NCBI GenBank assembly: GCA_905182715.1
Contig: CAJJCP010000028.1
Location: 12,592-76,591 of the forward strand
Direction: 5' to 3'
Length of the DNA: 64,000 nt
Source: an uncultured Candidatus Poseidoniales archaeon
GTDB lineage: Archaea; Thermoplasmatota; Poseidoniia; Poseidoniales; Poseidoniaceae
The notes under the pieces were generated by a model. The model was not told the origin of the DNA. It ran no database searches and saw nothing but the letters and a program-made list of their open reading frames with translations. Shown here piece after piece: positions 22,790-64,000 of the stretch; positions within the stretch are counted from its first letter, which is position 1; each line of letters opens with the position of its first letter. A program made the translations under genes and the position numbers.

Positions 22790-22810
22790 CCACTAGTAAA
22801 ACCACGAAGC

Positions 22811-27218: not shown

Positions 27219-27348
27219 ATCGATTGATTGAAGTTTATAGATACTCGAGGGTGTAAACCTCCACTCGGGGATTTCAAGTCCTACGGGTGAGGCCCTGAGT
27301 GCGTTTCATCACGCTTCTTTTCCTTGCTCGTAGGCAACTTCTCATTTC

Positions 27349-28780: not shown

Positions 28781-28791
28781 TTTTTAGCACC

Positions 28792-30072
28792 TCACATGAA
28801 AATTGTAGCCGGATGTTCGAGGTAAGACTTCACCAACTGAACGAGGCTTGCTCCGTCATGGCCATCAACAACTCGATGGTCCCATGATGATGAAAGATTC
28901 ATCATTCGACGAATGACAATGTTGCCATCTCTGACGACTGCACGGTCCTTTGCGTTATGGACGCCAAGAATTCCAACTTCTGGTTTGTTGATGATTGGCG
29001 TTGCACCGAGGCCTCCAAGTCGTCCGAGGCTGGTGATTGTGAAGGTTGATCCTGAAAGGACATCAGCGGTTGCTTTACCATCGCGAGTTGCACTTGTGAC
29101 TCGCATCATTTCTTCAGCAGATTGCCAAATATCCATGGCTTCAACATGTTGGACAACAGGAACAAACAATCCACGGTCAGTTTGAGTTGCAATTCCAAGA
29201 TTGATCGCTTCGTGTCGGGTGACGACGTTTGAATCGTCATCATACACAGCGTTGCATTCCGGACGCTCTCCCAATGCCTTGACCAATGCTTGCATAATGA
29301 AAGGAAGATAGGTCAATTTCGGTGCACCTTCTGGTCGAGTTGCGTTGAGATGTTGACGCAATTCTTCGAGAGCGGTGACATCAACTTCTTCAAAGTAAGA
29401 GAAGTGAGGAATGGTTGTATAGGATGAAACCATGCCTTCTGCAATCTTTCTTCGCAGACCAATGACCTTGATTTCTTCGGTTCCATTTCTCTCAATACGG
29501 GCAGAAGCCCCGATTGGTCGAGCACGGCTTGCGCCACTTGCTCCACCGGCAATGTGAGCATCAAGGTCTGCATGACTGATTCTACCTGCAGGTCCGGACC
29601 CAGCGACCATGTTGAGGTCAATGTTGGCTTGACGTGCACGTTGTCGAACTGCAGGGCTTGACAATGCTTTGGTTCCTGCTGCACGTTGAACGGCGGGTGC
29701 TGCTGCAACCGGTGCTGCTTTTGGAGCAGGTGCGGTTCTGACTTTTGGTGATGCAGGTGCCGGTTCTGCTTTTGGAGCAGGTGTTGGCTCTGCTTTTGGT
29801 GCATCATCAGGTGCTGCAGCGTTTCCATCTCCCTCAACTTCGAATTCGATGCAAACAACGCCAACCGGTAGTGTGTCGCCAGCTTCACCAACGACTCGAG
29901 TTACTTTCCCATCAACAGGTGAAGGGATCTCGACGGTTGCTTTATCGGTCATCACGGAAAGAATTGGATCATCTTCTTTGACAATGTCACCAACAGCGAC
30001 CATCCATTCTACAACTTCGCCTTCGACGACTCCTTCTCCAATATCTGGCATCTTAAATGCAAATGTTCCCAT
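28792..30072 (-). CDS. Dihydrolipoamide acyltransferase (E2) of a 2-oxoacid dehydrogenase complex
   Basis: Lipoyl domain (FKMPDIGEGVVEGEVVEW...SVMTDKATVEIPSP), a peripheral-subunit-binding domain (SSPAVRQRARQANIDL), and the catalytic DHRVVDG. Confidence 0.9.
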   Translation of the reverse strand: MGTFAFKMPDIGEGVVEGEVVEWMVAVGDIVKEDDPILSVMTDKATVEIPSPVDGKVTRVVGEAGDTLPVGVVCIEFEVEGDGNAAAPDDAPKAEPTPAPKAEPAPASPKVRTAPAPKAAPVAAAPAVQRAAGTKALSSPAVRQRARQANIDLNMVAGSGPAGRISHADLDAHIAGGASGASRARPIGASARIERNGTEEIKVIGLRRKIAEGMVSSYTTIPHFSYFEEVDVTALEELRQHLNATRPEGAPKLTYLPFIMQALVKALGERPECNAVYDDDSNVVTRHEAINLGIATQTDRGLFVPVVQHVEAMDIWQSAEEMMRVTSATRDGKATADVLSGSTFTITSLGRLGGLGATPIINKPEVGILGVHNAKDRAVVRDGNIVIRRMMNLSSSWDHRVVDGHDGASLVQLVKSYLEHPATIFM

Positions 30073-40512: not shown

Positions 40513-42127
40513 AGGGAGTTGTTCAGAATTCAACACAGCATTCGTCACTATGGCTCGTCTTGCTGGATTGCCTGCCCGAATGGTGACCGGTTTCTCTGGC
40601 GGTATTTGGAACGGTGATGGTTATTCTGTTTACCCAACACATTTGTCCACATGGGGTGAAGTTCGATTGCAACAAAACTCTGCGAGTGGCGACACTGAAC
40701 TTGGATGGATTGCATTCGATGCCTGCCCCGCTGCTGAAGAAGTTGAAATTGTGAATCAAACTATTTCCTCTTTCACCTTTGACCGAGATGGTACGGTCTT
40801 GCTCAACGTGTCCGGGCAATTGCGCTACAGCGAAAACTTGTCCTCCATTTCAGAACATTCACTTACCGGATATCTTGTCCCAATGGCCTTAGAAAATGAA
40901 ATTCCTGGTCAGGCTGCAGTTCCAAACTTTGAGTTTGGTTCAGACATTACGCTTGCTGATGGAACCTTTACTTTCAACGGAACTCCTCCTGAATTGGACG
41001 GGCCGGGTATGTATCGAGTGGTTGTCAAACTCCTTCAATCAGGCTATGTTGCTGAAGCAGGAGTGATTTTTGAAGGATACATTAACGTGACAGAAGATTC
41101 AGTTCTCAGTCACACTGCTCCAAATGCAATCAATGCTCCAATTGCTGGTGCCGGAGCTTTAACAGTCATTGAAGGTAGGCTTTCATTGGAAAATGCCCCT
41201 ACGAATAATATTGCAAACATTGGAGTCAATGATTTGACGCCACCATCGGTCTGGTTGACCTATACATCTTCCGTGACCGGTTTCACAAACTTGAGCAGTT
41301 TCATGAACATTGACGGTACTTGGAGTTTTGATTTGAATCTCGACCCACTTGAAACGAAGACAAATCTTTCTGCAATTCTTGGATTCTCTGGATGGCAAGA
41401 TACGCAAGCAACCGGTATTACTCCAACTCAATTCCATTTGCGTCCTTCGACCACTTCGATTGTAATTGATGTGCGTGATGCGCCAAACTTGACCGCAACT
41501 CTTGAAGGGCCACTTGCCAATAACAGCGTCCTTCTCATCGGCGATAACCTATGGGTAAACGGTACGACTCTCACGACTGGAGCATCACCTGTGCCAATGG
41601 CAGGTAATCTTTCGCTGTCAATTCGAGAAAACGAGACTTCACAGGATTGGACTCAAGTGTTTAACCAAAGTGTTAACGGAGCGTTTAGCATCCAACATTT
41701 ACTTTTGGCAGCAGATGCTCAAGTCATGGCTGGAATTCTCGAAATTCAGATACGCTTCTTCCCCAACGCTATCGAAGCAACCGATGACGCGAATGTGACT
41801 GCAGGTGGCCCTTACCTACTGCGTGGCACGCTCATTTTCGAAGTACAAGCGAGTGCCCAATTAAGGGGGACAGATGCTACTGTCTTAGTCAGTGCAATCG
41901 ATCATCGTGGTGTGAATACAGACCTTCTTCTCTCTGGTAATTTTGATTTCACCTTCAATGGAAACTGGGTCAACACAACCGTCGATCCGCAAACTGAAAC
42001 AATGACTATCAACTGGTTGATTGATTCAACCCTCTTTGCTGGTGATTATATTTCATCACAATTCCATCAATGGTTCCGATTTGTATCAACCATCAATCGG
42101 CATGAGTACGGTTCGTGTTGCTGCTGA
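40490..42127 (+). CDS. Giant surface protein, segment 2 of 3: transglutaminase-like core and following beta-rich region, in the +1 frame relative to segment 1
   Basis: REGSCFRFNTAFVTMARLAGLPARMVTGF (Cys motif G-x-C...FV..AR.AGLPAR.V.G), then ...PTHLSTWGEV (His) and ...IAFDACP (Asp), a complete TGase-like Cys-His-Asp triad. The Cys lies upstream of the ORF finder's ATG at 40550, and there is no start codon between the frame-2 stop (40487-40489) and the Cys. Confidence 0.65.
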   Translation, partial: PWYKPLREGSCSEFNTAFVTMARLAGLPARMVTGFSGGIWNGDGYSVYPTHLSTWGEVRLQQNSASGDTELGWIAFDACPAAEEVEIVNQTISSFTFDRDGTVLLNVSGQLRYSENLSSISEHSLTGYLVPMALENEIPGQAAVPNFEFGSDITLADGTFTFNGTPPELDGPGMYRVVVKLLQSGYVAEAGVIFEGYINVTEDSVLSHTAPNAINAPIAGAGALTVIEGRLSLENAPTNNIANIGVNDLTPPSVWLTYTSSVTGFTNLSSFMNIDGTWSFDLNLDPLETKTNLSAILGFSGWQDTQATGITPTQFHLRPSTTSIVIDVRDAPNLTATLEGPLANNSVLLIGDNLWVNGTTLTTGASPVPMAGNLSLSIRENETSQDWTQVFNQSVNGAFSIQHLLLAADAQVMAGILEIQIRFFPNAIEATDDANVTAGGPYLLRGTLIFEVQASAQLRGTDATVLVSAIDHRGVNTDLLLSGNFDFTFNGNWVNTTVDPQTETMTINWLIDSTLFAGDYISSQFHQWFRFVSTINRHEYGSCCC

Positions 42128-45100
42128 AGTGGCATGGAATTTGAGTCTCAGTCAAGATTGGACTCACTTGGGCAATTCGAGTTATCTGTTTGGAGATATC
42201 TTTGACGCGCAATATACCAATATGAGTGTGCTTGGTGACAACATCACCATGCTTTCAATTATCATGCTGACACCAGATGGTATGCCAATTGACCTTTCAC
42301 AGGGATTGTTAGACAATACGACCGGAAGTTTCCTCCTCAACTTCACCATTCCAATGACGAACCCTTCCGATTCATACGAATTCCTTCTGAATATGGACTT
42401 CGACTCAATGGCACCGGCTGGCGGAGCATATTTCCGATTTGTCGATTCAGCTGTTCCACCCGCCCCACCCTCGCTTCCTTCAACACTTGTTGGTATTGAA
42501 TCTGAATTTGTTGTTAAAACTGAACGGAGTTCATTAATTGTTGAAGCCAACCAAGCCATCGACTTTAATGCGACCATTACTGATGTTGCAGACCAATCCA
42601 ACGTATCCGGTGCCGTAGTCGAATACATCTTGGACTGGGGCAATACCAATGTTTCACTGGGTCTTGATACTTCAGATTCTGAAGGTAATTCAACCCTCCA
42701 ATGGACTGCAACAGGTATTGCACCAGGCTATTACGATGTATTGGTAATTGTTTATGACGATTTGACCGACGCTCTCGGTCAAGGCAATTCACGCCGAACT
42801 GGTAACTCCTCTCTCGTCAATTTGACTGTACAAGTCCCGAGTGTGATTCGTATCGACTCGATTCCAACTGTTACAACAGCTGGATTGAATTTCAACGTTC
42901 TTGGACAAGTTCTCGATGGAGATAACGCTGCACGACCTCTTACAACTCCAGTTGAAATGTCCGCATTTTGGTTAAATAATCCCGATGAACTGTTGGTTGG
43001 GGCTTACCTCACAACTTCGAATGGAACCTTCAACATGAGTATTCCAACTGATACTTCCGGTAACGGCACTGAGCGTGGAAACAAGATTTTAGTTTTGAGT
43101 GTGAATGAAGATTCTTCGCCTTTCTACCTTACTTCCACTTCGCAGAATGGAATGTTGGTCATGGGTGTGAGTCAGTTTAACAATCTCCAGCCGCTTAATC
43201 CAGTCACAGTGAACCGTGGAGATACCGTCAATATTACAGGACGTTTGATGGAATCCTCTAATCTCTTTGCACCATTATCTGGATTTGATGTCGATATTCA
43301 ATTCCATGAAACATGGTTGGCAGGCACCCAAACAGATGGAGAAGGATATGCAAACTTTAGCCATCAGATCCCTATGTCACATCCACTTGGATTGATTATT
43401 GTATCATTGGTATTCAATGGTTCTTCAGACTTGTTGAATACCCAAGTGAACCTTTCAACCATTACCATTCGCTCGACGACCATCATGGTGGTTGACCCTA
43501 TTGCAGCAAATCCCGTTGCAGGTACTTCCTTCAATGTCACTGGTCGCGTAGTCAGTGATAATGGAAGTGGACTTGAACAACGTGATGGAAGCGTTTTGCC
43601 TTCGAACATTTTGTTCAGCCTTAATGGTCTACCAACAGGGTTCTCAGTCACAGGTGGTTCAGTTACCACTGGCGGTATATGGTCAGCCAACATCCTTCTT
43701 GGAGAAGGCTTTGAGGCTGGAAACAATTCTCTCGAGGCATCCTTTATTCCAAACGTCAACTATTACATTGGTTCGACGGTTAACACCTCGTTTGATAGTC
43801 GAGGGTTTACTTCACTGATCTTCGTTCAACCTTCACTTGATGGCATTGGTTTGCCGTCTTTGAATGACCGTACAGAACGTGGCAACGATGTCCAAATTCA
43901 GGTGCTCTTGCGCGACAATACACAGTCCGCAGTAGCAGCGCAACAGGTCATTGTGACGCTTATCGGTACAGATGTAAGTATCATCCTCACGACCTTTGAA
44001 AACGGAACTGGAGTTGGTATACTTACTGTCCCAAGTAACCAAACGATTGGTTTTAATGATCTTGAAGTGACTTTTGCAGGAACTCCAGGAACAACTGGTT
44101 TGATAGGCTCAAATGCCTCTACTCAATTCGTAGTTCTTGCTCAGACCAATTTGGTGATTTCATCCTCGCCTTCGACGCTTGTTGCAGGTGACTCATTCAT
44201 CGTTCAAGGAATATTGCTGGATGACCTCAACCAAACCCTTGCAATCAATGGCAACTCATCACTTGCAATTGTCCACCTTCTTGTCGATGGAATCCCAGTT
44301 TCGAGTATTGAAACAGATGCATTGACTGGAAACTTTTCCATTGGATGGACATTGCCAGAGGATACCTCTGCAGGTTCACACTTGATTGAAGTTCGTTTCC
44401 TTGGTGGACGTGACTGGGTTGACCCTGTAGGAGTCGGTGACCCTGCGAACCCAGATTTCTATCTTCCAAGCAGTGCTCAAATCAATTTTAACGTAAGTGT
44501 CCCTACGAAAATTATTCTTTTGACACCAACCGGCACAGTGGATCGAGAAGCAACAATGACCCTTGAAGGCCGTTTGCTTGATTTGGTAGATGTACCTTTG
44601 ACGAACCTTACTGTTGAAGTCTGGCTTGATGGACAATGGATGACCAATGTGACGACCGATGATACTGGACTCTTTACAGCCGTTTACCCAGTACCTGCCG
44701 ATGCCAAACTTGGTCCGCTTTCGCTTGAAATACGTTTTACTGGTACAACATTCTATCTGCCGAGTAACGCAACTGGAACCTGGACAATATACAGTCCTAC
44801 ACTGGTCACGGTTTCGATGGAAAGCCCTGTTGCAGTCGGTCAGAACACGACCATTACCGGTACTGTTGTCGATAACCAACTGATTGGGGTTTCTGGCCAT
44901 ACAGTTCAACTTGAAGTCGAAGGTCTCATCATAGCGACCATTGTTACAGATTCTGAAGGCCAATTCACCTTTACTTGGAATGTTCCTGATACCTTTAGTT
45001 TCGGCGACCATCTCCTGTTTGCAAATGTCGATGCTCAAGGTTACTACCGCTCGAACACGGGTAATACTTCCTTTTTCTTAGCCCACCGTTCCGATGTGAC

Positions 45101-47085: not shown

Positions 47086-49191
47086 TCACACTTCTTCAAT
47101 GGTGTGGACTTTTGAAAAGAAGCGACGAGCAAAGCTCGCGGTCGTTTGTGGGTCATTGGTGGAATTCATTCTCAAATCGCTTGGATAACAACTGATGTAG
47201 TTTCGGTCGGTATGTCGCTGATCGAGAAGGAGAATCAATGCTCGGTCACCAACCGAACGTATTGGGCGCCCCATTGCTTGTAAAATCGCATTAATTGCAG
47301 GTTGTGTTACGGTATAACGCCAAGCGTTATTTTTCCCAAACCGGTCTCCCGCATAGGCTTTGAGTGAATCTGAGAGGACGGACGGAGGTGGATTCGGAAT
47401 CCCTATACAAGCTACAGCGTCTAAGATGCCTCCATTGTAGTCGATTCCCTCTGACAGCCGTGCTCCATGAACCCCACACAGCAAGATACGTTGACCAGAT
47501 TCTTTCTCGCTACGGAGCGTTTCAACAATTGAATCTATGTCGTTTTTTGTCCAGTCTCTACTTTCCACAACTTTTCGAATACCTTTGAAGTTGGTTTCGG
47601 AAAGGATCTCTTCCATCATTCGGTATGAAGGTGAAAAAACCGCAATATGTCCGGGGGTTCCATCGATGAGTGCTTGGATATGGTTTCGAATCTTTGCCCA
47701 CATCATCGGTGTTCGCTGACTGTACTTGGTGGTGACATCACCTGCAACTAAAACGGGTCGGCGTTCTCCAGCAAATGGGGATGTATACGCTGTTTTGGTA
47801 GTTTTTCCAGCAGGGAGGTCAAGCATATCCGCATACATTTGAGGGGGATACAATGTTCCCGACATCAATATGGCTCCATGTATGGATGAAAATACAGGGC
47901 CAGACACAAGTCCGGGGTCCAAGAGATGTGAAGTGATTGTCCCATCCTTGCCTTTTTTTGAACTGAATACCAGGCTCAAGGCGGTTGTTTCTCCAAATGT
48001 CTCGATGCATTTTAGAATATGTCCCATTCGATGAGAATCCGGTTCCATTGCATCTTCATCATCTCCTGCTTCCAAATCAATTTCAACTCGGAGGAGAAGG
48101 TCGGAAAGACGGGGTAACCTATGACTTCGTTCTACAGACAAGTCTGCCAAGTCCGGATTGTCAGTCAATGTCTTTTGACCAGTCAATCCTTCATATTCGT
48201 CGCATGAACGGTGAAGAATCTCTAAGAATCTGGACACCTCAACACGTGATTCATTGGAGTCATTCGGTAGATCCGAGTGGAGTTGCCGGAACAAATCAGC
48301 AATTTTTGTTCGAGCAATTTTCATAATTTCAAATGCCCATGTGGCTACATCGAGTTCCAATGCACTTGATACTGAATTCGATTTGAGGTAATGTGCAGTG
48401 AGTGTACCCACATATTCTTCCAATTCCATCGTTGCGTTTCGAGACATGAGGGGCGTGATGATTTTCTCCATCGTCATTCGAATCCTATTTGGTAGGTTGT
48501 GCGCTTCATCGACAACAACAATAATGTCTTCAAGAGCGACTCCCATGGCTTCTAAACTTGATTTGCGAACACCTTCATCAAAGATGTGATTGTAATCTCC
48601 TACGAATATATCCGCATGGCCTGCTGCTTCTCTCGCAGCCTTCCAAGGGCAGGTTTGGGTAATTTCTCCTCCAACTCGGTGAATTTTAGTTAAATCGACT
48701 AATTCATCAACGTGGAGTGGACTGTCAAGAATTCTCTTTGTTAATCCCGGAGCACTGGTAATCCACGGGCGGCACGATTTTGTCTTTCGAGCAGTACTGC
48801 ACATCATGGAGAAAACAAGTGAGGATTCCTTTGCAAAGGGCTGAACACACATTCCCGATTGACCAATCATATCGACCAATGTGATTGGGTCTTTGCCAAC
48901 ACGAATTTGATTTATTCTGCGAACCGTGTCAACAACGATTCGATGTTGGCTCTGGCGAGATGTAAGGAAGAATACATGTTTCTTGTTTGGAGAATTCTGG
49001 GTGATCTCAAGAGCAGCCGCTAATGCAGCAGCCGTCTTTCCGATACCAGTCGGTGCAGCCGCTAAATGATAACCGCCGCTTCGAAGAGCTTCTGTAGACT
49101 CTTGAATCATCTCGATTTGACCGGGGCGGGGCTTTTCATGAGCCAAATAGGAAAACACATGTTCCTTTCCTTGACTCCCCTCCACTGTCAT
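47086..49191 (-). CDS. XPD/Rad3-family ATP-dependent DNA helicase (DinG-like)
   Basis: FSYLAHEKPRPGQIEMI...AAPTGIGKTAAAL (motif I), a 4-Cys FeS-domain region (C...C..C...C), DEAH-like VVVDEAHNL, and C-terminal helicase motifs V/VI. Confidence 0.8.
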   Translation of the reverse strand: MTVEGSQGKEHVFSYLAHEKPRPGQIEMIQESTEALRSGGYHLAAAPTGIGKTAAALAAALEITQNSPNKKHVFFLTSRQSQHRIVVDTVRRINQIRVGKDPITLVDMIGQSGMCVQPFAKESSLVFSMMCSTARKTKSCRPWITSAPGLTKRILDSPLHVDELVDLTKIHRVGGEITQTCPWKAAREAAGHADIFVGDYNHIFDEGVRKSSLEAMGVALEDIIVVVDEAHNLPNRIRMTMEKIITPLMSRNATMELEEYVGTLTAHYLKSNSVSSALELDVATWAFEIMKIARTKIADLFRQLHSDLPNDSNESRVEVSRFLEILHRSCDEYEGLTGQKTLTDNPDLADLSVERSHRLPRLSDLLLRVEIDLEAGDDEDAMEPDSHRMGHILKCIETFGETTALSLVFSSKKGKDGTITSHLLDPGLVSGPVFSSIHGAILMSGTLYPPQMYADMLDLPAGKTTKTAYTSPFAGERRPVLVAGDVTTKYSQRTPMMWAKIRNHIQALIDGTPGHIAVFSPSYRMMEEILSETNFKGIRKVVESRDWTKNDIDSIVETLRSEKESGQRILLCGVHGARLSEGIDYNGGILDAVACIGIPNPPPSVLSDSLKAYAGDRFGKNNAWRYTVTQPAINAILQAMGRPIRSVGDRALILLLDQRHTDRNYISCYPSDLRMNSTNDPQTTASFARRFFSKVHTIEEV

Positions 49192-49533
49192 AATGATGGT
49201 TCAGCGTCGACCCCTCTAAAGGATTGGGGGGAATTAAGTTTGCAGCGGTAGCACTGTTGTGAATAATTGTGCCCAGGTATGTGGGGGTCCTGAGCACGTG
49301 GGAACCATCCAACTTAGGAAGCTGGATTGGAATTGGAGTCCCCCCGCCCGTCTTTCGAGGGGAGGTCTGTTGGGTTTTGTTCTAGTCCAGCGCGTGCAAG
49401 ACGGGCACGCAGACGCAAAGCGGCAAATCCGTACGGACTGGACAAGTCCCGTTCGGCGTTGAAGGTGGCATCGCGAGTCTCGCTAACATCGTTTTGCCAA
49501 TTCATTTTCCATCCCCTCCTGCACTCTCACCCA

Positions 49534-49764
49534 CTATTCGTGGTATTCTTCGCGTCGTATCGTCGAACTCTTGGCTTGAACCAAGAGGTCATCGAGTTGT
49601 TGTGTTAATTCAGAACGAGACTTGATAGCCTGTTCTATGTAGAGTGAAAGCCCTTCTTGGGCAGCTGTTTCTGGTGTTGTGCCTTGGAGTTCGTAGAGTT
49701 GACCAAGAAGCATCTTGTCGCCATGTCCGAGAGGGATCCGGACCGAGTCCATCCCGGTGAGCAT
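49534..49764 (-). CDS. Small hypothetical protein, possibly ribbon-helix-helix-like (weak call)
   Basis: 76-aa ORF with SVRIPLGHGDKMLLGQLYELQ...TPETAAQEGLSLYIEQ. This beta-strand plus two helices pattern is only suggestive. Confidence 0.2.
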   Translation of the reverse strand: MLTGMDSVRIPLGHGDKMLLGQLYELQGTTPETAAQEGLSLYIEQAIKSRSELTQQLDDLLVQAKSSTIRREEYHE

Positions 49765-50159
49765 GGGTTGACCCTTGAGGATATTGTTGGATGGCTGCTC
49801 GGATTACATCCGAGCGGTTTCGGGCACCTTCAAGTCCAACGCGTGCATCGAGTCGATGCAAGTTCTTCCTCAGTAATTCTGAGTGAAACAAGGTTGCTTG
49901 GGGTTGTCATTTTGAGTCCTCCGTATCCATTGGGTAGGTGAGAGGGTATATCAAGGTAGCGCGAATGATGACATTTTGACTTACAGACTGATTACAATTG
50001 CCTTTGCAGTTCAGTGCCGCGTCTGATTCGTTTTGGGCGTGAACACTACCGTTCTCCCAGGTATTGGTCTCGATTTTCTGTATACGGTGGTGGGATTGTG
50101 GTCGCTTCGCCTTGAGTTGGAAGTAGAACCTTCTAATACGGGAAACTTTAGCAGACTTC

Positions 50160-52814: not shown

Positions 52815-55800
52815 TTAACCTTGGTATGGAATCCAAGATTCAGATGCAGAATCGTAATACGATAAACTTCCATCAGCAGCTTTTGACCAATTGACGCCAT
52901 TTTCTTCCCATTGTTGAGATTCTTGTTCAATGGCCGGGAGTTCCTTTGTTGTTTCGTATACCATGTTAGAATCAGTTGCCGAATCGGTATAATTCTGCGC
53001 TGCAAATGGTGAATCATCAACAACTGTTTCCTGACCCTTTCGAACAACGAGTAATGCGCCAAGACCACAGAGTGCTAAGAGTGCGAGAATTGCGTAAACA
53101 AGGCCGCCTCCACTGGACTCTGCTTCTTGTTCTGTGCGCGCAGCATCTTCAGGATAGTAATCATAGGTATCTGATACTCCATCTCCATCCGTATCTGTTG
53201 TCTCATTACGGTCCAATGGGAAATCATCTTCAGCATCATTGATGCCGTCTTGGTCAGTATCCATTTGAGTCAAAGCACATCCATCTTCGAACACAATAGA
53301 ACTCGTTGGAGATAATGGGCAATCATCGTCAATATTTTTGACTCCATCTTCATCATCGTCTTTTTGATGTTCTGAGCAACCATCGAGATCGACTCCGTGA
53401 GATTCATCAGTGTCTGGGCACAAATCTTTGTGATTGTTAATGGTGTCATTATCCTCATCAATTTGAGAATCAGCGCAACCTTCAGGATTGACTTGCTCTC
53501 CTGCAGGTGTTGCTGGGCATGTGTCGATGGTATCGTCAATCATGTCGTTATCTGCGTCTTTTTGATTGTCAGCACATCCTGAAGCATCGGTAATGAGGCC
53601 AATTTCGGTATCTGGGCAGTCATCAACATCGTTCATGATGGCATCATCGTCATCATCTCGCTGTGCATCAGAACAACCATTGGAATCCGCTTCATCTTCG
53701 TTCCCAGTCATTGGGCAAAAGTCGTCCATGTCATTGACGCCATCTTCATCTGTATCACGTTCAGCAGATGAACAGCCAACGCCATTGACGAGGGTTGATG
53801 GTGATGTAGTTGGACATTCATCCAGTTGGTCATTGATTCCATCTTCATCGGTGTCACGTTGCATATCTGCACATCCAGCACTGTCAACAGCAGAGCCGAG
53901 TGGCGTCATTGGACAAGCATCGAATGCATCCATGATTCCATCATTATCGCCGTCTTCTTGAGAGCCTGAACATCCAGTAGCGTCGACGTTCTCACCTGCG
54001 GGTGTTGATGGGCAAGCATCGATATCATTGGTGACTCCATCGAGATCATCGTCCTTCTGTTGTTCTGAACATCCCATTGAATCAACGGATTGACCTGCGG
54101 GTGTGTTCAAACAATGGTCAGGAGTATCGCCGTTTGGATTATCACCATAGCTGTCTCCATCTGCATCAAACCATTGTGTTGGTTCAGTAGGGAATCGGTC
54201 AGCCATGTTTCCATTTTGGTTATCTCCGTATCCATCACCATCTGCATCTTCCCATTGAGTGCCGTCCATTGGGAAAGCATCTGGGTCGGTGCCTGCTTGG
54301 TTGTCTCCGTATCCATCACCATCAGTATCTTCCCATTGAGTTGCGTCATTCGGGAATGCATCGCCGTTGTTTCCGGTTGGGTTATCGCCATAGCCATCAC
54401 CATCGGTGTCGGTCCATTGGGTTGAATCAGTAGGGAATTCGTCAGGAGTGGTTCCAGTTGGATTGTCTCCATATCCGTCACCATCCTGGTCAGCCCATTG
54501 AGATGAATCGGTAGGGAAAGCATCACCGTTGTTTCCAGTTGGGTTATCTCCGTATCCATCACCGTCTTGGTCTGCCCATTGGGTTGAATCAGTCGGATAC
54601 TCATCAGCATAATTGCCGGCGGCGTTATCTCCGTAGCCATCTCCATCTTGGTCAGCCCATTGGGTTGAATCGTACGGGAATGCATCAGAGGCATTGCCGG
54701 ATGGGTTGTCTCCGTAGCCGTCCCCATCTTGGTCATCCCATTGGGAACTGTCGAGCGGGAAAGCATCGGGTGAATTGCCATTTGGGTCATCGCCATAGCC
54801 GTCTCCATCCATGTCTGAATATTGGCTGCTGTCGTAAGGGAAATCATCAACCATGTCGTTGTACCCATCACCGTCGGAATCTTTCTGAGAAAGTTCACAA
54901 CCATACATGTCGACTGATGCACCAGCAGTTGTGTTGGCACATAGGTCATATTCATTGGCAACTCCATCATTATCATCATCAATGGTCAGTGAGAAGCAAT
55001 CACTGTCGCCAATTAATTGAACACTTATACTCGAGTAGAGATTGACGACTGCGCAGTAAATACCACTCATGTTTGGAGTCGTATAGGTGAATGTTGGCAT
55101 GCTCATGTTTTGTGCTGTTGCAGTAAAGGTACTGAGGGTCGAAGTAGCCAGTGATGCACCTGAACTATCAGTGACTAATATTTGGTATTTGTAATCGTCT
55201 CCTGTAACAAGGTCGCTGCCTTTGACCATGACATCATTGGTGGCTGAAGTTGAACTTGTTGAATATGAATCAATCAACATGGTCGGCAATTGTGGAATGA
55301 ACTCATCATCATGAACGCCAATAAACCCTTCATTGGAAGTCAGATTAACTTGAGTGTTATTGTATGAAAGGAAAGTAACAAACCCGTGATCATTCATGGT
55401 TGTTGGTCCATTCCATGTGATTTGCCACGATTCTGAGGTGGCCGTATCGGTCGTAAACGTGACGTTCATTTGGTCAATCATTGAGGCTGTGAGTGCCATG
55501 TCGACATCCATCGAAGTCGTGTAATTGTTATCAAATTCGACCATATCATAGACAAGCCACCATACTGTATAATCGGTGTATGTACTGAGGTTTGTTGCAT
55601 ATATTTCACCTGTTGTTGAAGAGGTTACGTAAGCTTCGAGCATTTCGATGTAGATGCAATCTCCATCTTCATCGAGCATTGCTCCAGTAGCGTCTTTCAA
55701 CACTGATACAGAACAGTATTCAGATTCTTGCATTACAGGGCTTGCCGATGTTGCATTGGCCATCATGGTCGTTGCTGTAGCACTGAAGTTACCATTGCTC

Positions 55801-57011
55801 GGCATGGACCAACTTTCAGTGTCATTCAAGAAAAACTGAACATTTGAATGGTTGTAGAGGTATGTATCTCCAATGGTTAATCCCGTGAATTCAAGCATTG
55901 AATCGGTTGTTCCATTCATGGTCACAGTGACGGACTGGAAACTTTGCCCTCCGCCTGGTAAATTTGTAGTTAATGAGATGTCATAATTATTCGTAAGAAC
56001 ACCTCCCCCAAATGATGCGTAATGATATACTTTGAAGTATGCTGTGAAATTTGATAGGGCTGTATATGCTGCTGCTTCATTATCTGAAGAAGAAGACATT
56101 GAAACAAAACTATTGAAAGAAAGTAAACTACCAGTAGCATCTTCTAAAGTTGCATCAATATCGCCACCTGCGTGCAAGAATGTTAAATTGAAGTAGTATG
56201 TGACCCCACTCATCATTTGAATTTCGTAGTAATCATCATTGGCAACTCCAGCAGAATTTATTTCGACACTTAATCCAGTACAAGCAACCGGCAATATGGA
56301 GGCTAAAGTTGCAGTAGCAGGTGTATCATTGGGTTCTAAGATATCCGGGGCATTACCGTTTCCAGTACATGGGCTTGGTATTGCGCTCCCATTACCACCC
56401 GTTCCGTTGCCACCGGTTCCGTTGCCAGTCGAGGTGCTGAATGTCCAGATGTCAAGGGTATAGAATCCATACCCGTCATAACGGTATATTTGTACATAAA
56501 CAGTCCCTCCATGTGGAGTTGCAGAATTATTTGTGCTTACTGATTCGGGGTTAAACATATATGATTCATCGATAAAAGTTCCATTCGCATCATAGATTGC
56601 AAGATCAAAATCGTTTGTATATGTGGAACCGTTTGCAGAAGTATATGTTGTGTTAAAGGAAAGTTGCAGCGCTAATCCTTCATTGGCTGCAAGGTTGACT
56701 GCGACCCAATCTTCATCATCATTGACATCGAGTTCGCCGAAGTCCGAAAAATACACAGGTGCAAACCCTGAAAGGTTTGCAGCAAAGGATGAATTGACTC
56801 CTGACATGTTGTCTGGTAAATCCATGGATAATCCAAAATCGTTTTGATTTGCACCGACTGCAGATACGCTTGGTGCAGTCAATGTCAGCGTCGTTATGAC
56901 AAGCATCAAGGCCAAGAGAATGGAACTCGATTTGTTAGGATTCGTAGAACTCAAGGAAGAGGACATAAACTTGGGACTGAGTGATAGTTTAAGAGACTCT
57001 CTACTCGGCAT
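52815..57011 (-). CDS. Giant cell-surface protein (1398 aa) with a signal peptide, about 10 tandem 33-aa Ca-binding repeats, Cys-containing bacterial TSP3/OmpA-type repeats, a C-terminal TM anchor and a cytoplasmic tail
   Basis: N-terminal ILLALMLVITTLTLTAPSVSA. Repeats FP.DSTQW.DQDGDGYGDNP.GN..DA occur about 10 times. Units of the form D-DGDGV-D--D-CP-TP-G--VD--GC (for example DLDGVTNDIDACPSTPAGENVDATGCS) repeat about 8 times. TM helix LVYAILALLALCGLGALLVV. Confidence 0.8.
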   Translation of the reverse strand: MPSRESLKLSLSPKFMSSSLSSTNPNKSSSILLALMLVITTLTLTAPSVSAVGANQNDFGLSMDLPDNMSGVNSSFAANLSGFAPVYFSDFGELDVNDDEDWVAVNLAANEGLALQLSFNTTYTSANGSTYTNDFDLAIYDANGTFIDESYMFNPESVSTNNSATPHGGTVYVQIYRYDGYGFYTLDIWTFSTSTGNGTGGNGTGGNGSAIPSPCTGNGNAPDILEPNDTPATATLASILPVACTGLSVEINSAGVANDDYYEIQMMSGVTYYFNLTFLHAGGDIDATLEDATGSLLSFNSFVSMSSSSDNEAAAYTALSNFTAYFKVYHYASFGGGVLTNNYDISLTTNLPGGGQSFQSVTVTMNGTTDSMLEFTGLTIGDTYLYNHSNVQFFLNDTESWSMPSNGNFSATATTMMANATSASPVMQESEYCSVSVLKDATGAMLDEDGDCIYIEMLEAYVTSSTTGEIYATNLSTYTDYTVWWLVYDMVEFDNNYTTSMDVDMALTASMIDQMNVTFTTDTATSESWQITWNGPTTMNDHGFVTFLSYNNTQVNLTSNEGFIGVHDDEFIPQLPTMLIDSYSTSSTSATNDVMVKGSDLVTGDDYKYQILVTDSSGASLATSTLSTFTATAQNMSMPTFTYTTPNMSGIYCAVVNLYSSISVQLIGDSDCFSLTIDDDNDGVANEYDLCANTTAGASVDMYGCELSQKDSDGDGYNDMVDDFPYDSSQYSDMDGDGYGDDPNGNSPDAFPLDSSQWDDQDGDGYGDNPSGNASDAFPYDSTQWADQDGDGYGDNAAGNYADEYPTDSTQWADQDGDGYGDNPTGNNGDAFPTDSSQWADQDGDGYGDNPTGTTPDEFPTDSTQWTDTDGDGYGDNPTGNNGDAFPNDATQWEDTDGDGYGDNQAGTDPDAFPMDGTQWEDADGDGYGDNQNGNMADRFPTEPTQWFDADGDSYGDNPNGDTPDHCLNTPAGQSVDSMGCSEQQKDDDLDGVTNDIDACPSTPAGENVDATGCSGSQEDGDNDGIMDAFDACPMTPLGSAVDSAGCADMQRDTDEDGINDQLDECPTTSPSTLVNGVGCSSAERDTDEDGVNDMDDFCPMTGNEDEADSNGCSDAQRDDDDDAIMNDVDDCPDTEIGLITDASGCADNQKDADNDMIDDTIDTCPATPAGEQVNPEGCADSQIDEDNDTINNHKDLCPDTDESHGVDLDGCSEHQKDDDEDGVKNIDDDCPLSPTSSIVFEDGCALTQMDTDQDGINDAEDDFPLDRNETTDTDGDGVSDTYDYYPEDAARTEQEAESSGGGLVYAILALLALCGLGALLVVRKGQETVVDDSPFAAQNYTDSATDSNMVYETTKELPAIEQESQQWEENGVNWSKAADGSLSYYDSASESWIPYQG
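54121..54890 (-). repeat. Tandem coding repeats of roughly 99 bp (about 8-10 units) inside the giant TSP3 protein gene
   Basis: DNA-level periodicity of units such as GTTATCTCCGTATCCATCACCATC...CCCATTGAGT...GGGAA. Sibling-frame ORFs (54107..54982 minus, 54090..54425 plus, 54539..55045 plus) are artefacts of this repeat. Confidence 0.7.
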
Positions 57012-57250: not shown

Positions 57251-57323
57251 GAGAGTGTTAGAGGCTTACAGGTCTTTAATGGTCGTATCGAACCCTAGAA
57301 TTTCACATGAGTTCATGCGAAAA

Positions 57324-57725
57324 TCATTCAGCTTCTGGAATCGGCTCAATAACGACCAATGGAATATTCGCTTCAATTGCTTGACCTTCTTCACAAGTCA
57401 CAGAGATGACGGTTCCGGAGACAGGTGCTTGAATTTCATTTTGCATTTTCATGGCTTCCAGAATGAGAATCACTTGTCCTTCAACAACTTCGTCACCAAC
57501 ATTGACTTCGACAGTAACGACTTTCCCAGGGATATTGGCTGAAACTGTGCCCGACTTTTTCTTTTTCCCACTGGCGTTTCTTTTCTTTTTCGCCACAGGT
57601 GCTGCATCAGGTATTTCGATCTGAAATGTTTTTCCTTCCACAGTCGCAGACCAAGAAGTACCTTCGCCTTCAATGACGACTTCAAATTCGGTTCCATCAA
57701 CAATCACTTTTCTTGTTTCAGTCAT
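57324..57725 (-). CDS. Biotin carboxyl carrier protein / biotinyl-domain subunit of the acyl-CoA carboxylase (carboxyltransferase) complex
   Basis: C-terminal biotinyl domain with EAMKM (biotin-Lys motif) and flanking VEGQVILILEAMKMQNEIQAPVSG. An Ala/Pro/Lys-rich linker (PVAKKKRNASGKKKKSG) precedes it. Confidence 0.8.
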   Translation of the reverse strand: MTETRKVIVDGTEFEVVIEGEGTSWSATVEGKTFQIEIPDAAPVAKKKRNASGKKKKSGTVSANIPGKVVTVEVNVGDEVVEGQVILILEAMKMQNEIQAPVSGTVISVTCEEGQAIEANIPLVVIEPIPEAE

Positions 57726-57729
57726 ACTT

Positions 57730-57924
57730 TCACTTCCAAGGTGAGCGACTTGCTCGTTTCTGCATTAATGAGGAAAGACCCATGTTCATTCTTCGATGAT
57801 CTTGGGACCATGCAAGGCCAGGTTTACGGGCAACTTGACCAGGGTCGTCTCCACTTTGTGAGAGTAGGGAATAGACTGCAGCAATCGCTGCCATTCGCAA
57901 GGTCTCTTCATCGTGGCTTGACAT
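57730..57924 (-). CDS. Small putative accessory subunit of the carboxylase/decarboxylase complex (weak call)
   Basis: 64-aa ORF between pccB and the biotin carrier, with a partly hydrophobic segment LRMAAIAAVYSLL. Position is analogous to small delta/epsilon subunits in mmd/pcc clusters. Confidence 0.25.
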   Translation of the reverse strand: MSSHDEETLRMAAIAAVYSLLSQSGDDPGQVARKPGLAWSQDHRRMNMGLSSLMQKRASRSPWK

Positions 57925-57933
57925 ATGAACGCC

Positions 57934-59487
57934 TCAAAGGGGTATATTTCCATGCTTTCGAGCAGGGCGTAATTCTTCTTTATCCAATAACATCTCGAGC
58001 GCACGACAGAGTTTACTTCGAGTTTGGTTTGGTTCGATGACATCGTCCAAATATCCGAGTGCTGCTGCAGTGTACGGATTTGCAAACTTCTCATTAAAAT
58101 CTTCAGTCAGTCTTTGGCGTTCTTGTTCAGCGTTTCGTGAGTTTGCAATTCGCTTTCGATGAATGATTTCGACTGCACCATCTGCACCCATTACTGCAAT
58201 TTCACCGGTTGGCCATGCGACATTGTAGTCTCCACGGATGTGCTTCGATGACATGACATCATATGCGCCACCGTAGGCTTTGCGAAGAATGACTGTGAGT
58301 TTCGGAACAGTTGCTTCTGCATATGCATAGAGGAGTTTAGCACCGTGTCGAATAATTCCTCCCCATTCTTGACTTGTACCCGGTAAGAAACCTGGAACAT
58401 CTTCAAGGGTAATGATTGGAATGTTGAATGCATCACAGAAACGGACGAAACGTGCTGCCTTGTCGCTTGCATCAATGTCCAAACATCCTGCTAACACCTT
58501 TGGCTGATTGGCAACGACGCCAACAGTATGGCTACCAAGGTGACCAAACCCTACAACGATGTTTTGTGCCCAATCCGCTTGGACTTCAAGGAAAGCACCA
58601 TCATCGAGAACTTCTGAAATAACATCAAGGACATCGTATGCTTTTGTCGCTTGGTCTGGCATGATGGTGTCAAGTGCCTCGCAAGAACGGTCGATTGGGT
58701 CACTGGTTTTCTTATCCGGTGGTCGCTCGAGATTATTTTGTGGAAGTAAGTCACACAAATCGCGTGCCAACTGAATTGCTGCTTCGTCATCTGCTGCTGA
58801 AAAGTGAGATACTCCTGACTTGGTGCCATGCGTTGATGCACCGCCTAAGTCTTCAAAGTTCACTTCTTCATTGGTTACTGTTTTGATGACTTCAGGACCT
58901 GTGATGAACATGTATGAGGATTCCTCTACCATGATGACAAAATCCGTAATTGCTGGAGAATAGACTGCTCCACCTGCACACGGGCCCATAATGACAGATA
59001 TTTGGGGTACTACACCAGAGGCGCGAACGTTTCGGAAAAAGATTTCAGCATAACTGCCGAGAGATGCCACGCCTTCCTGAATACGTGCGCCACCAGAATC
59101 GTTCAAACCGATGACTGGGCGCCCTGTTTTGAGTGCCATGTCGAGAACCTTACAGATTTTGAGCCCGTGCATTTCACCCAGTGAGCCACCGTAGGCGGTG
59201 AAGTCTTGAGCAAAAGTAAACACTTGCCTGCCGTTGATAGAGCCATGACCAGTGACGACACCGTCGCCTGGGATGATGTCCTTGTCCATGCCGAAATCTC
59301 TGCATCGATGCTCAACCAACGCATCAAGCTCTTGGAATGTCCCCTCGTCGAGGAGGACATCTATGCGTTCACGGGCCGTCATTTTGCCCTTGCCGTGTTG
59401 GCGGTCGATTCGGTCTTGGCCTCCGCCCATTTCGCTGCGAGATTTACGATTTCGCAAATCTTGGAGTCGTTCCTCTGATGATGTCAT
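57934..59487 (-). CDS. pccB: Propionyl-CoA / methylmalonyl-CoA carboxyltransferase (PccB/MmdA family)
   Basis: [18 protein letters not shown]...[27 protein letters not shown]...[19 protein letters not shown], an acyl-CoA carboxylase beta (crotonase-fold) protein of 517 aa. Confidence 0.9.
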
Positions 59488-59839
59488 AGGCTTCCCAAAG
59501 GGGTCTACGGAAAACCCGCCCTTATGCGTTGCCTTTGTTTGAGGTCGTATGGAGCGTTCTACAGATACTTCCTGAAAAGCGCTTTTTTGAGTATGAATAT
59601 ACTTCCCATTTCATCAATCCACCAAGCACCTCGACTTGAACGCCATCGAACTGATGTCGAACGTCTGAAGTTTAGGGATGATGATGGTGCCCAATACATG
59701 TTCCAACGGTTCAAGGGATTCCTGGGCTTAACAATTTGATTAGGACCAAGCAAATTGATTCCTCTCCAGAAAACGGTGAAGAGTAAATACTCCGTTCATG
59801 CCTCTTGATGAAGCATAGGAAGAGTGAAACAACACGGTC

Positions 59840-60193
59840 ATGAATGCGTCTAAGGGGTGTGTTGATAGGGAGGAGATGCCTCCAACAACCATGAGCGAAC
59901 CGTGGAGAATCGTGGTTGCAAAGCCCGGCTTAGATGGGCATGACCGAGGTGCCAAAGTCGTTGCACGAGCATTACGTGATGCAGGCAACGAAGTCATCTA
60001 CACAGGTTTGCGACGTAGTGCCCAACAAATTGTCGATACTGTTCGTGATGAGGATGCACGTTTCCTCGGGCTTTCTTCTCTTTCTGGTGCTCATGAGCAT
60101 CTTTTCCCAAAGGTTTGTGAACTCTTGAAACAACAAGGTCTCAACGATGTGATTGTTTTTGGTGGAGGAATCATTCCTACTTGGCGATCGTGA
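59840..60193 (+). CDS. Methylmalonyl-CoA mutase small subunit (B12-binding domain), N-terminal fragment. A 1-nt frameshift near 60180-60195 interrupts it.
   Basis: [35 protein letters not shown]...[17 protein letters not shown]...[10 protein letters not shown] is the classic B12-binding (DxHxxG) domain. The start is probably MSEPWRIV at 59891. Confidence 0.8.
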
Positions 60194-60338
60194 ACCACTG
60201 TATGCTTGTGGTATACGTGCTATTTTCGGCCCAGGTACACCTACTTCTGAGATTTTAGAATTTATAGAACAAGCAACACAGTTGGAAAATACTGGCGTTG
60301 GCCAAGACAGCGATTGGTATTGGACCTCATCGGCATGA
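60153..60338 (+). CDS. Methylmalonyl-CoA mutase B12-binding subunit, C-terminal fragment in the +1 frame
   Basis: [24 protein letters not shown] matches the conserved C-terminus (..D...L...GV..IFGPGT..) of the B12-binding domain, continuing from GGGIIP. Confidence 0.75.
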
Positions 60339-60347
60339 GGTGATGGT

Positions 60348-61257
60348 ATGACGTTCGAGTTCCTTGAGCAAGCCAAATCTGGTGACCGCCGTTCACTTGC
60401 GCGAACATTAAGCAGTCTTGAAAACGGTTTAGTCAAGATTGAAGAAGTACTCGATGTAGATTGGTTCAGTCCCTGCTTCCTACGATGGTGATTGGCAAAC
60501 TTTAGCGATTACCGGAGCACCAGGTGTTGGTAAATCATGCCTTCTTGATGGGTTACTTCGCTCGTGGGCCGAAAAAGGACTCCGGGTTGCAGTCTTGGCC
60601 GTTGACCCTTCATCTCCACGAACGGGTGGCGCTTTACTCGGTGACCGAGTACGGATGACTGTCGTCGATGATAAGGAATTAAATGAATTAATTTATTTGC
60701 GTTCAGTTGCCACTCGTAAAGCATCTGGGAGTGTCCCAGTCATCGTAGAAGACATGACCAAAGTTCTCCTCGCTTTAGGCTGGCAGACGTGTGATTATCG
60801 AGACGGTTGGAGCAGGACAGTCCGAAGTGAGATGTGCAGCATTGGCTGATCGAATTGTGGTTGTTGAAGGGCCGGCACGAGGCGATGGAATTCAAGCTGA
60901 AAAAGCAGGCTTACTCGAATTAGCAGATGCAGTTTTAGTGAACAAATCTGATTTGCCTGGAGCAGAACTTCACGCTGATGAAATACGAGAGTCGTTTGAA
61001 TTGGGTGCAGGAAGTACCCCGCCGTTCTCTTGACTTCAGCCATACAAGGTACTGGTATTTCTGAGGCTGCTGAAATGCTTCTCATGCTTTCATCTTCTGG
61101 TCGCTCAACACGTGCACGATGGCGAGAACGCCTTTTGGCATACCATGAACGAAAAATCCTCGAATCTCCTCAACTCGATGAATTACTCGAAAAACTGGCG
61201 AAGGGTTCAATTCTGTTAGATGAAGCGTTACATATTATTGGTGGTGAACAGCAATGA
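60348..61257 (+). pseudogene. meaB: MeaB/ArgK-family methylmalonyl-CoA-mutase-associated GTPase, disrupted by at least three frameshifts (four frame segments)
   Basis: Frame segments: MTFEFLEQAKSGDRRSLARTLSSLENG; then +1 to ...LAITGAPGVGKSCLLDGLLRSWAEKGLRVAVLAVDPSSPRTGGALLGDRVRM; then +1 to IIETVGAGQSEV...ADAVLVNKSDL; then -1 to ...AIQGTGISEAAEMLL...RARWRERL. All are colinear with MeaB P-loop, switch and NKxD motifs. An SD-like GGTGATGG precedes the ATG. Confidence 0.75.
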
Positions 61258-61878
61258 GTGAACATGTTGAATTAACAAACCCCGTTGAATTATCAGTTGG
61301 TGGAATGGGCGGGCATTTATTTCGTCGTTCAATCCATCTTGGTATGTCCCTTCTGCCTTTGGTCTTCTTTGAATATGGTGAATCACTTGCCGACCTCGTT
61401 GGATTAACAGTCCCTCAATTATTATCATCAATGGTTTTTTTATTGTTTCTTTTAGAAGGCCTTCGTCTTGGTTTTGGGATCACAATCTATGGGCAAAGAG
61501 AGTATGAAGCCCGACAAGTTTCCGCTTTGGGTTGGGGCGCATTTGGTATTGGTCTGGTCTTTTTGTTGGCGCCCGTCGAAGCATACGCATGGCCAATTAT
61601 TCTTTCTTTATCCTTAGGTGACCCCTTTCTTGGTGAAATGAGACGCCGAGGTATTGGAACCCGTAATGTTATTCTTTCATCCGTTGCCTTCTTGTTCCTT
61701 GTTTGGGTTGCATGCTGGCACTTCTTTTGCTACACCATTATGGCTGGCCTTTTTGTTTGCGCCTTTGTGCGTAGCCTCTGAATGGCCTCGTCTGCGGTAC
61801 ATCGATGACAACGCAACCATGGTCCTCATTCCACTTGGAATGATTTTACTGTTCGAGCCCTTTCTCCAACTGATGTAA
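61254..61878 (+). CDS. Hypothetical polytopic membrane protein (possibly dolichol/polyprenol kinase-like), possibly frameshifted near 61650-61780
   Basis: Several TM helices and an LSLGDPFLGEMRRRGIG motif reminiscent of the GD..A..VG...G box of CTP-dependent polyprenol kinases. Two overlapping ORFs (61254..61781 frame 0, 61654..61878 frame +1) are both hydrophobic. Confidence 0.35.
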
Positions 61879-62109
61879 TCAAATTATGTGTAGAAGTTGA
61901 CTCAATATATTCAAATGATGGTTAGCATTGGCAAGGTTGAGGGATACAGATGAGCGAAGAGACCAAGGATTCAGCACCACCACAAATCGCCTACTTTGTT
62001 GTGTTTTCTCTCGGTGTCATTTTCCTCGCAATCTCCATGGTGAGATATCCTCTTTGGGGCCTTTGATTTCTAAGGGATGCTTGAAGAAGGTCACCGTTTT
62101 GGTCACCTT

Positions 62110-63594
62110 ATGTGTGGCATAGGTGGGATGTTCGGTGAGCCGGACCCTGCTGTTGTTCAAAGAATGAATACACTCCTTCACCATCGTGGACCAAATGGCA
62201 ATAATGTCTGGTCTGATGACCATATATCTCTTGGACATACTCGTTTAGCCATCGTTGACTTAGGCGGAAGTGACCAACCTTTGTTTGGCTCAGCACGTGA
62301 AGTCCTTGTAGCGAATGGAGAAATCTATAACTATCGAGAAATCCGGTCTCAGCATCCCTCTTTTTCTTGGAAAACGCAGGGTGACTCTGAGTCGATATTG
62401 GCACTTCTTGATGCCTCGAAATCGAAGCATTCCGGCGTGTTAACTGCTCGACAACACGCACAATGGATCTCACAATTGAATGGAATGTATGCATTTGCTC
62501 TTTGGGATTCTGAGACTCGTCATTTACTTTTAGCGCGTGACCCACTTGGAATTAAGCCACTTGTTCGGACATCAGTTGACGGTTCACTTCTTTTTGCCAG
62601 TGAAAGTAAAGCATTGCGGGCACATGAAGGCCATGTACCTGCACTGGATGAGGAAGCACTTGTTGCTCGTCTTGCATGGGAATACCCGCTTGATGGTACG
62701 ACGTTACTGAAAGATGTCACTCAGATTCGACCAGGTACTGTTGAAGTTTGGGCATTGGACCTTGAAGGTAAAGCCAAACTGTTTGACCGTGCTACCATCG
62801 AACAACAAAAAGTCAATCCTTTGAATACATGGGGTCCTGAAACCGATGCAGAATCCCTGCTGGAAACTTTCGTCGAAGGTGTTTCAGAACGCCTCATGTC
62901 GGATGTACCAGTTGGAATTGTTCTTTCTGGTGGACTTGATTCTTCATTGGTAGCAGCAGTTGCCCATGAGGCTGCAGAACGTGCCCATCAGCCGGTTCCG
63001 GCCTGTTGGACGGTCGCAGAAAGTGAAGAGAACCCTGATTGGATTGCTGCTGAAGAAGTTGCTTCCTCGTTTGATTTGGTCCACCATCAACATATTCTCG
63101 AACCAGATTCATTTGACACGCTCCTTCCAGATTTGTCATGGCATGGTGAAGACCTTGACGTCACCGTACTCTTTTTCCAGCCACTCTTCCAAAAGATGTC
63201 ACAACATGTGACGGTTGGATTGTGTGGACAAGGGGCAGATGAGTTGCATGCAGGTTATCCCCGCTACCGAGATCTCAAGGCACATGGCGAGGTTATTGAT
63301 GCTCGTTTGGCATCGATGGAACATCCTTTTGCACGTCAAATGGAGAATGAAGCATTGCCTGTTGGTGAGCACTGGTATGCGAAGGGTCATGCAGGCGGTA
63401 GCCATACGGGTTCACTGGAAGAGTTCCTTCAATTCGAGCTCGACCACGGGCAACTTTCAAATTTCCAATTACGATTGGTTGACCGCCATTCAATGGCTCA
63501 TTCATTAGAAGTTCGAGTTCCATTCCTTTCTAAGTCTCATCGACAAGCCAGTCATCAATTGCCGATGGAATGGCGACTTCCTGCCGAACGGTGA
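62110..63594 (+). CDS. asnB: Asparagine synthetase (glutamine-hydrolysing), N-terminal and central part. A +1 frameshift near 63580-63590 interrupts it.
   Basis: MCGIGGMFG (Ntn Cys2), ...LAIVDL..GSDQPLF..., and the SGGLDSS PP-loop. After VRVPFL the conserved AsnB sequence continues in the +1 frame. Confidence 0.85.
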   Translation: MCGIGGMFGEPDPAVVQRMNTLLHHRGPNGNNVWSDDHISLGHTRLAIVDLGGSDQPLFGSAREVLVANGEIYNYREIRSQHPSFSWKTQGDSESILALLDASKSKHSGVLTARQHAQWISQLNGMYAFALWDSETRHLLLARDPLGIKPLVRTSVDGSLLFASESKALRAHEGHVPALDEEALVARLAWEYPLDGTTLLKDVTQIRPGTVEVWALDLEGKAKLFDRATIEQQKVNPLNTWGPETDAESLLETFVEGVSERLMSDVPVGIVLSGGLDSSLVAAVAHEAAERAHQPVPACWTVAESEENPDWIAAEEVASSFDLVHHQHILEPDSFDTLLPDLSWHGEDLDVTVLFFQPLFQKMSQHVTVGLCGQGADELHAGYPRYRDLKAHGEVIDARLASMEHPFARQMENEALPVGEHWYAKGHAGGSHTGSLEEFLQFELDHGQLSNFQLRLVDRHSMAHSLEVRVPFLSKSHRQASHQLPMEWRLPAER

Positions 63595-63895
63595 TGAAAA
63601 GCTGGCCTTACGGGCCGCAGCATCGCTCACCTCGTTGCCAAAGCATATTGTTCGCCGCCCTAAACTACCTGCTGGTCGGGCGACATCCCCCACTTTAATC
63701 GATAACCTCCTTGCAGAATACAAGCCCCAAACCGATGCTCTTCTTCGGCGTTACCCCTCATTTTCTGGGGCTTTAAAGACACAGCATGATATAGCCCTGG
63801 GTTTAGGATTGTTTGAGGCAGTTCACATTTTGGATAGAGGGACGAAGAAACCTACGGGTTCGACGATGGATTTACTCAACGAGGTGATTGGTTGA
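63581..63895 (+). CDS. asnB: Asparagine synthetase C-terminal fragment in the +1 frame
   Basis: NGDEKLALRAAASLTSLPKHIVRRPKLPAGRA parallels the AsnB C-terminal region (...K..LR.A....LP..I..R.K..F..P...). Confidence 0.7.
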   Translation: MPNGDEKLALRAAASLTSLPKHIVRRPKLPAGRATSPTLIDNLLAEYKPQTDALLRRYPSFSGALKTQHDIALGLGLFEAVHILDRGTKKPTGSTMDLLNEVIG

Positions 63896-64000
63896 CATTT
63901 GTTCATAATTTAGCACCTGTGCTTGAAAGCAAACGTGAAGAACTCACTGCATGGATGTCCCAAAAAAGAACCGAAGTGCCTATTCCGATCTATGGTAGTG
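63896..64000 (+). CDS. Start of an unidentified ORF running off the window
   Basis: An open frame (LTFVHNLAPVLESKREELTAWMSQKRTEVPIPIYGS) begins at a TTG directly after the asnB stop and reaches the window edge. Identity unknown. Confidence 0.2.

Follow-up and report, generated by a model that had tools for sequence, protein, structure and literature searches.

Frameshifts in the B12-subunit and MeaB genes of a Marine Group IIa archaeal contig are very probably mixed-strain consensus errors, not gene decay

In the collapsed two-haplotype assembly of Trypanosoma brucei Lister 427, nearby allelic variants misled read alignment, leading to INDEL errors and truncated ORFs, and phasing restored the truncated ORFs (PMC8445201). 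The archaeal locus described here resembles that assembly in that it is a two-haplotype mosaic with INDELs at or near allelic variants and with ORFs cut short. In T. brucei, the genes proved intact once the haplotypes were separated, whereas here it is near-identical contigs that carry them intact; furthermore, the two haplotypes (A and B below) are not diploid homologues but co-occurring strains or species-level lineages in a metagenome, ~91% identical where they differ most, and the comparison here is made from sequence alone. The locus also resembles the pseudogenes of reductive evolution, with which it shares several frameshifts in adjacent genes; however, it differs from them in having no excess of nonsynonymous (N) substitutions and almost no private substitutions, in having likely essential genes among those broken, and in having its indels on population SNPs.

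By gene content, the closest described system is the archaeal split methylmalonyl-CoA mutase, with a separate small subunit and a MeaB chaperone. The likeness extends to matches with the corresponding protein models (TIGR00640 for the small subunit, passed, and TIGR00750 for MeaB, the top match), to the DxHxxG and P-loop motifs, to the adjacency of the two genes, and to the adjoining PccB-like carboxyltransferase and biotin carrier, an arrangement common to all Poseidoniaceae relatives compared. The points of difference are that MeaB scores under the NCBI equivalog cut-off and that the catalytic large subunit does not lie within 10 kb. Based on the sequence, no biological difference between this locus and the archaeal system could be shown.

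The stretch of DNA that was analyzed (the window, 64 kb) comes from a Marine Group IIa archaeon (Poseidoniaceae), and the genome closest to it is the MAG FRAM18_bin097 (L001), at ~91% DNA identity. Its genes and indels are listed in Table 1. The block containing the carboxyltransferase, a conserved 64-aa ORF, and the biotin carrier is transcribed divergently from the pair of genes encoding the B12-binding subunit and MeaB. TBLASTN recovered each protein of this block in a single frame, with 100% identity to relatives for both PccB and the biotin carrier and 98.4% for the 64-aa ORF. A public assembly collection has this exact PccB protein in 47 of its blocks. The best model for this “PccB” is the methylmalonyl-CoA decarboxylase alpha subfamily (TIGR01117), at 792.6 bits, under the cut-off of 998.8.

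With base 60178 removed, the B12-binding subunit is restored to 165 aa and passes TIGR00640 with 148.8 bits against a cut-off of 57.45; the relatives’ subunit carries PF02310, and the cobalamin-ligand motif DxHxxG is seen as DGHDRG in the translation of 59840-60178. The MeaB gene starts 10 bases past the stop codon of the B12 subunit, in the same orientation. Once repaired, it encodes 303 aa with TIGR00750 (MeaB) as the top NCBIfam match, at 206.9 bits, which is below the equivalog cut-off of 240.75 bits. Its close relatives are also 303 aa long, carry PF03308, and are named MeaB in some sources. The P-loop GxxGxGKS is present as GAPGVGKS in frame +1.

Table 1. Genes and single-base indels in the window, with window-unique substitutions (N/S) relative to six near-identical contigs
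Feature	Position	Strand	Details	Window-unique substitutions
RNR large subunit, 802 aa in relatives	25453	+	split by extra base	
Dihydrolipoamide dehydrogenase, 476 aa in relatives	28064	-	split by extra base	
Transglutaminase-domain protein, 2945 aa	40507..42050	+	two extra bases (40507, 42050), giving three ORFs	
Cluster of four extra bases at RHH-domain gene (124 aa)	49782..50066	-	extra bases 49782 and 49856 (at least) inside, frame broken	
Biotin carrier, 133 aa	57324-57725	-	frame whole	
64-aa ORF	within 57324..59487	-	frame whole, conserved; same strand as PccB and biotin carrier	
PccB-like carboxyltransferase, 517 aa	57934-59487	-	frame whole	0 N/35 S
Methylmalonyl-CoA mutase B12-binding small subunit	59840..60338	+	165 aa in relatives; one extra base 60178/60179	1 N/29 S
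Insertion 1	60178..60179	+	window CCTA (CC-T-A-CTT); A CCA, B CCT; synonymous Pro-codon SNP, at B-to-A switch	
MeaB-like GTPase	60348..61257	+	303 aa in relatives; extra bases 60458, 60787, 61250; base missing after 61023	9 N/23 S
Insertion 2	60457..60458	+	window AG (GTA-G-ATT); A = G, B = A in one column	
Insertion 3	60786..60787	+	window CAGA (CA-G-A-CGT); A CAG, B CAA	
Deletion	61023..61024	+	third base of Pro codon gone; relatives A, T, C or G; A-to-B switch	
Insertion 4	61249..61251	+	window GAA-CAG-CAA; A GAA-AG-CAA, B GAA-CA-CAA	
Membrane protein, 207 aa (“DolK-like”)	61254..61878	+	extra base 61724 breaks frame	
DolK-like insertion	61724	+	window TTCT (TTC-T-TTT); A TTT, B TTC	
Asparagine synthase-like gene (AsnB)	62077..63895	+	605 aa in relatives; extra base ~63583 breaks frame	5 N/41 S
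AsnB insertion	~63583	+	window GCCG; A CCG, B GCC	

Frame breaks were established by three-frame translation and by TBLASTN with intact orthologues, and the indels were placed by aligning 11 related contigs; these comprise five genomes (L001-L005) and six contigs that are ~98% identical to the window and that were found via the exact PccB protein. The TBLASTN alignment of the B12 subunit runs through aa 1-113 in one frame (59840-60178) and continues through aa 114-165 in the next (60180-60335), with 100% and 98% identity, respectively, to the orthologue in L081. The reading frame of MeaB follows the path 0, +1, +2, +1, and the extra base at 61250 then affects no more than the final residues and the stop codon. 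The DolK-like gene is split in TBLASTN into aa 1-159 and aa 158-207, which lie in different frames. The lesions are more than chance noise among ORFs; every one is a single-base difference from all relatives examined.

The initial annotation, which had been made from the sequence of the window, reported four frameshifts in 1.4 kb, one in the B12 subunit and three in MeaB, and all four were recovered by translation and TBLASTN; it had missed the fifth indel, at the MeaB stop. Its descriptions of pccB and the biotin carrier gene as whole and of the DolK-like gene and asnB as frameshifted also agree with our alignments. The comparison with orthologues in related genomes that it had proposed showed intact proteins: in the six ~98% identical contigs, the B12 subunit (165 aa), MeaB (303 aa), and the 207-aa protein are all whole, as is AsnB (605 aa), except in L085, where a different break splits it. 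The indels of the window occur in none of these six contigs and in none of the five more distant genomes. Exact-sequence look-ups of the window's truncated AsnB product and of its aRF1 product gave no record in the collection searched. At 59851, close to where the B12 subunit is annotated to start, a 1-base difference separates the window, together with the A-type contigs, from L001-L005; it lies upstream of the conserved domain and is a population-level difference, not a lesion specific to the window.

We also surveyed the rest of the window, by a TBLASTN census of 48 genes and by alignment with syntenic contigs; the splits in the 2945-aa protein are based on alignment and ORF boundaries rather than on the census. 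The ribonucleotide reductase (RNR) large subunit, lipoamide dehydrogenase, the 2945-aa transglutaminase-domain protein, and the RHH-domain gene are all broken in the window and whole in relatives. Indels are densest in two clusters. One is the B12-MeaB stretch, with five in 1.1 kb; the other comprises four extra bases in 0.3 kb at the RHH gene, of which those at 49988 and 50066 lie just upstream of the gene or of its last aligned residue. The distribution of indels is patchy (~22.4-28.1, 40.5-42.1, 49.8-50.1, and 60.2-63.6 kb). Between 540 and 20950, there are zero gaps relative to a TARA scaffold at 98.7% identity, and no window-specific indels were found in ~30-40 kb or in 50.1-60.1 kb. Patchy lesions that include likely essential genes fit an assembly problem and do not fit the loss of a single pathway.

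Identity profiles and the labeling of informative sites identified the window between 57.3 and 64 kb as a fine mosaic of A alleles (L081-L086 type) and B alleles (FRAM18_bin097, L001 type), whereas 50.5-57 kb is haplotype A throughout. All seven indels in 59.8-64 kb fall on columns at which A and B are discordant. In each of the six insertions in this region, the A and B alleles stand side by side, and the sole deletion removes a polymorphic column. Under a null computed from these same relatives, both alleles would be present in a random insertion with a probability of 0.063, so that the chance probability of finding this in 6/6 insertions is ~6e-8. For the remainder of the window, we applied the same test after adding relatives recovered by scanning a metagenome; the count leaves out 49988 and 50066, for which relatives are too few or none, as well as 25453 and 28064, where four closely related contigs are available. 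The pattern was present in three of the four informative events, at 49782 (A/T), 49856 (T/C), and 40507 (T/G). Among the relatives compared, which are few at 49988, a second population allele was not found for 42050 or 49988.

Taken together, these observations suggest that the frameshifts are very probably an artefact of mixed-strain consensus and neither decay nor another real biological feature, and that the organism most likely has whole, working copies of the B12-subunit and MeaB genes. In this reading, two or more Poseidoniaceae strains that occur together, with A-like and B-like haplotypes, would have been collapsed into the one consensus of the window. At a strain mismatch, one set of reads may have been treated as carrying an insertion and the other as carrying a deletion. 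If both of the resulting columns passed the vote, both bases would be written, giving a 1-base insertion; if neither passed, the base would be dropped, giving a 1-base deletion. Each such 1-base error would shift the reading frame. We infer this mechanism, along with the sequencing and assembly method, from the sequences themselves. The occurrence of both alleles side by side offers a simple test for mixed-strain consensus errors that is free of reads and requires sequence comparison only.

Within the mosaic, ~20 switches and no indels fall in PccB, compared with ~25 switches and five indels in B12-MeaB; the excess of indels per switch in B12-MeaB relative to PccB is a rough estimate and is borderline. 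Because PccB is mosaic yet free of indels, haplotype mixing by itself does not set where errors fall.

Alternation between haplotypes was also observed beyond this zone. At 57300-64000, ~21000-30000, 40000-42500, and 49000-50100, stretches near-identical to the L081-L090-type population alternate with stretches showing 3-10% extra divergence, and the latter carry FRAM18_bin097-type alleles where a second reference exists. The switches between haplotypes are at times just a few bases apart.

Part of the A/B mosaic could instead be real, belonging to a recombinant Poseidoniaceae strain that has swapped 100-300-bp tracts with a ~9% divergent lineage, with the indels added later by polishing with mixed reads; in a weaker variant of this reading, the mutase branch has just been inactivated. 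We consider this unlikely.

Generic sequencing error that involves no mixing of strains, as where random insertions arise in part of a noisy-read assembly that has low coverage or was left unpolished, could account for the excess of insertions over deletions (14 of the 15 coding indels in the window) and for the patchiness of the indels. It would also be consistent with the split genes in other assemblies with “contig_N” names (AsnB in L085, CarB and LysRS in L095, and E2 in L087). However, such an insertion would match the other allele of the population in ~6% of cases, as opposed to the 6/6 observed; in addition, the indels lie outside homopolymers, and private substitution errors are almost nil. 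This makes generic error quite improbable as the source of the frameshifts. Homopolymer-type errors, whether of the 454 or the nanopore kind, were rejected on the same ground, as the inserted bases are not in runs, albeit with 61724 being ambiguous.

Among the public “contig_N” assemblies of this population, in addition to the cases above, the M28 peptidase is split in L091 and L094, and CarB in L095 is in three pieces. The genes split in these assemblies are whole in the SPAdes- and MEGAHIT-style contigs that we compared. The “contig_N” names may point to long-read assemblers, and frameshift artefacts seem to be common for this population in assemblies of this type.

If taken at face value, the broken genes would mean that an abundant marine archaeon has lost the B12-dependent route from propionyl-CoA to succinyl-CoA, which would in turn sway inferences on vitamin B12 dependence. 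The initial annotation had favored a real loss of the mutase pathway, and a very recent pseudogenization, in which this strain no longer has the methylmalonyl-CoA mutase branch and frameshift mutations are eroding both the B12 subunit and MeaB, would be in keeping with five indels in a functionally linked pair of genes that adjoins whole PccB and biotin carrier genes. It would also be in keeping with the absence of the mutase large subunit from the window, as the initial annotation had correctly noted. We detected no PF01642 large subunit in the 64-kb window and none within 10 kb in the gene lists of syntenic relatives; a scan for the motifs TIRQYAGF and GLSVAFD, which provides a weak negative, also returned no match in the window and 128 related loci. 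Because relatives with an intact B12 subunit and MeaB likewise have no large subunit within 10 kb, its absence here reflects the normal layout and is no evidence of a loss. A search of the literature on methylmalonyl-CoA mutase in Marine Group II or Poseidoniales yielded nothing directly useful.

The substitutions likewise argue against decay. Real mutation accumulation produces substitutions that far outnumber indels. Across 59840-63895, with 20 relatives aligned, the window has one private substitution and seven private single-base indels, which is the reverse of the spectrum of real mutation. We classified as N or S those substitutions that set the window apart from the six near-identical contigs (Table 1), and these counts give no sign of relaxed selection on the B12 subunit or MeaB. 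The whole MeaB genes of these six contigs vary among themselves by 16 N/25 S, and against this the window’s MeaB counts show no relaxation. As judged from these substitutions, the data show the broken B12-subunit and MeaB genes to be under purifying selection.

Given this absence of relaxed selection, the intact B12-subunit and MeaB genes in all close relatives, the breakage of unrelated genes such as those for the RNR large subunit and lipoamide dehydrogenase, and the position of the indels on A/B polymorphic sites with both alleles in the insertions, recent pseudogenization is highly unlikely, and the proposed pathway loss is not supported. The initial annotation had also raised the possibility of a low-quality 3′ region, which was right in spirit in that it pointed to an artefact; however, a poor 3′ end alone was rejected, since similar indels occur at 25.4, 28.1, 40.5, 42.1, and 49.8-50.1 kb, and the errors are patchy across the window and, in 59.8-64 kb and at three of the four informative events elsewhere, track A/B sites. 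Programmed recoding, in which ribosomal frameshifting or transcriptional slippage would read through the breaks, has nothing in its favor beyond the presence of frame breaks in otherwise conserved coding sequence, and it has a negligible probability given that no site has a slippery or homopolymeric context, that the sites are conserved in none of >20 relatives, whose frames are all unbroken, and that three shifts in succession within one 303-aa protein are implausible.

With the frameshifts read as errors of a mixed-strain consensus, anyone reconstructing metabolism from this assembly would mistake the mutase small subunit, MeaB, RNR, lipoamide dehydrogenase, AsnB, and others for pseudogenes.

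Three other regions of the window were distinctive. The region 22400-23500 is hypervariable: it contains several indels, and window-unique substitutions there reach 114 per 500 bp. CutA1 of the relatives has no match of >80% identity within it, which suggests a far more divergent allele or other content. On the minus strand, 52815-57011 contains a 1398-aa ORF (1363 aa as called in relatives) for a secreted or anchored protein with long acidic repeat arrays of the DxDGDGYGD type; its relatives have no recorded Pfam match, and its haplotype is identical to that of the A population. At 50092-50113, A-type relatives carry ~190 extra intergenic bases between the RHH region and a 148-aa ORF.
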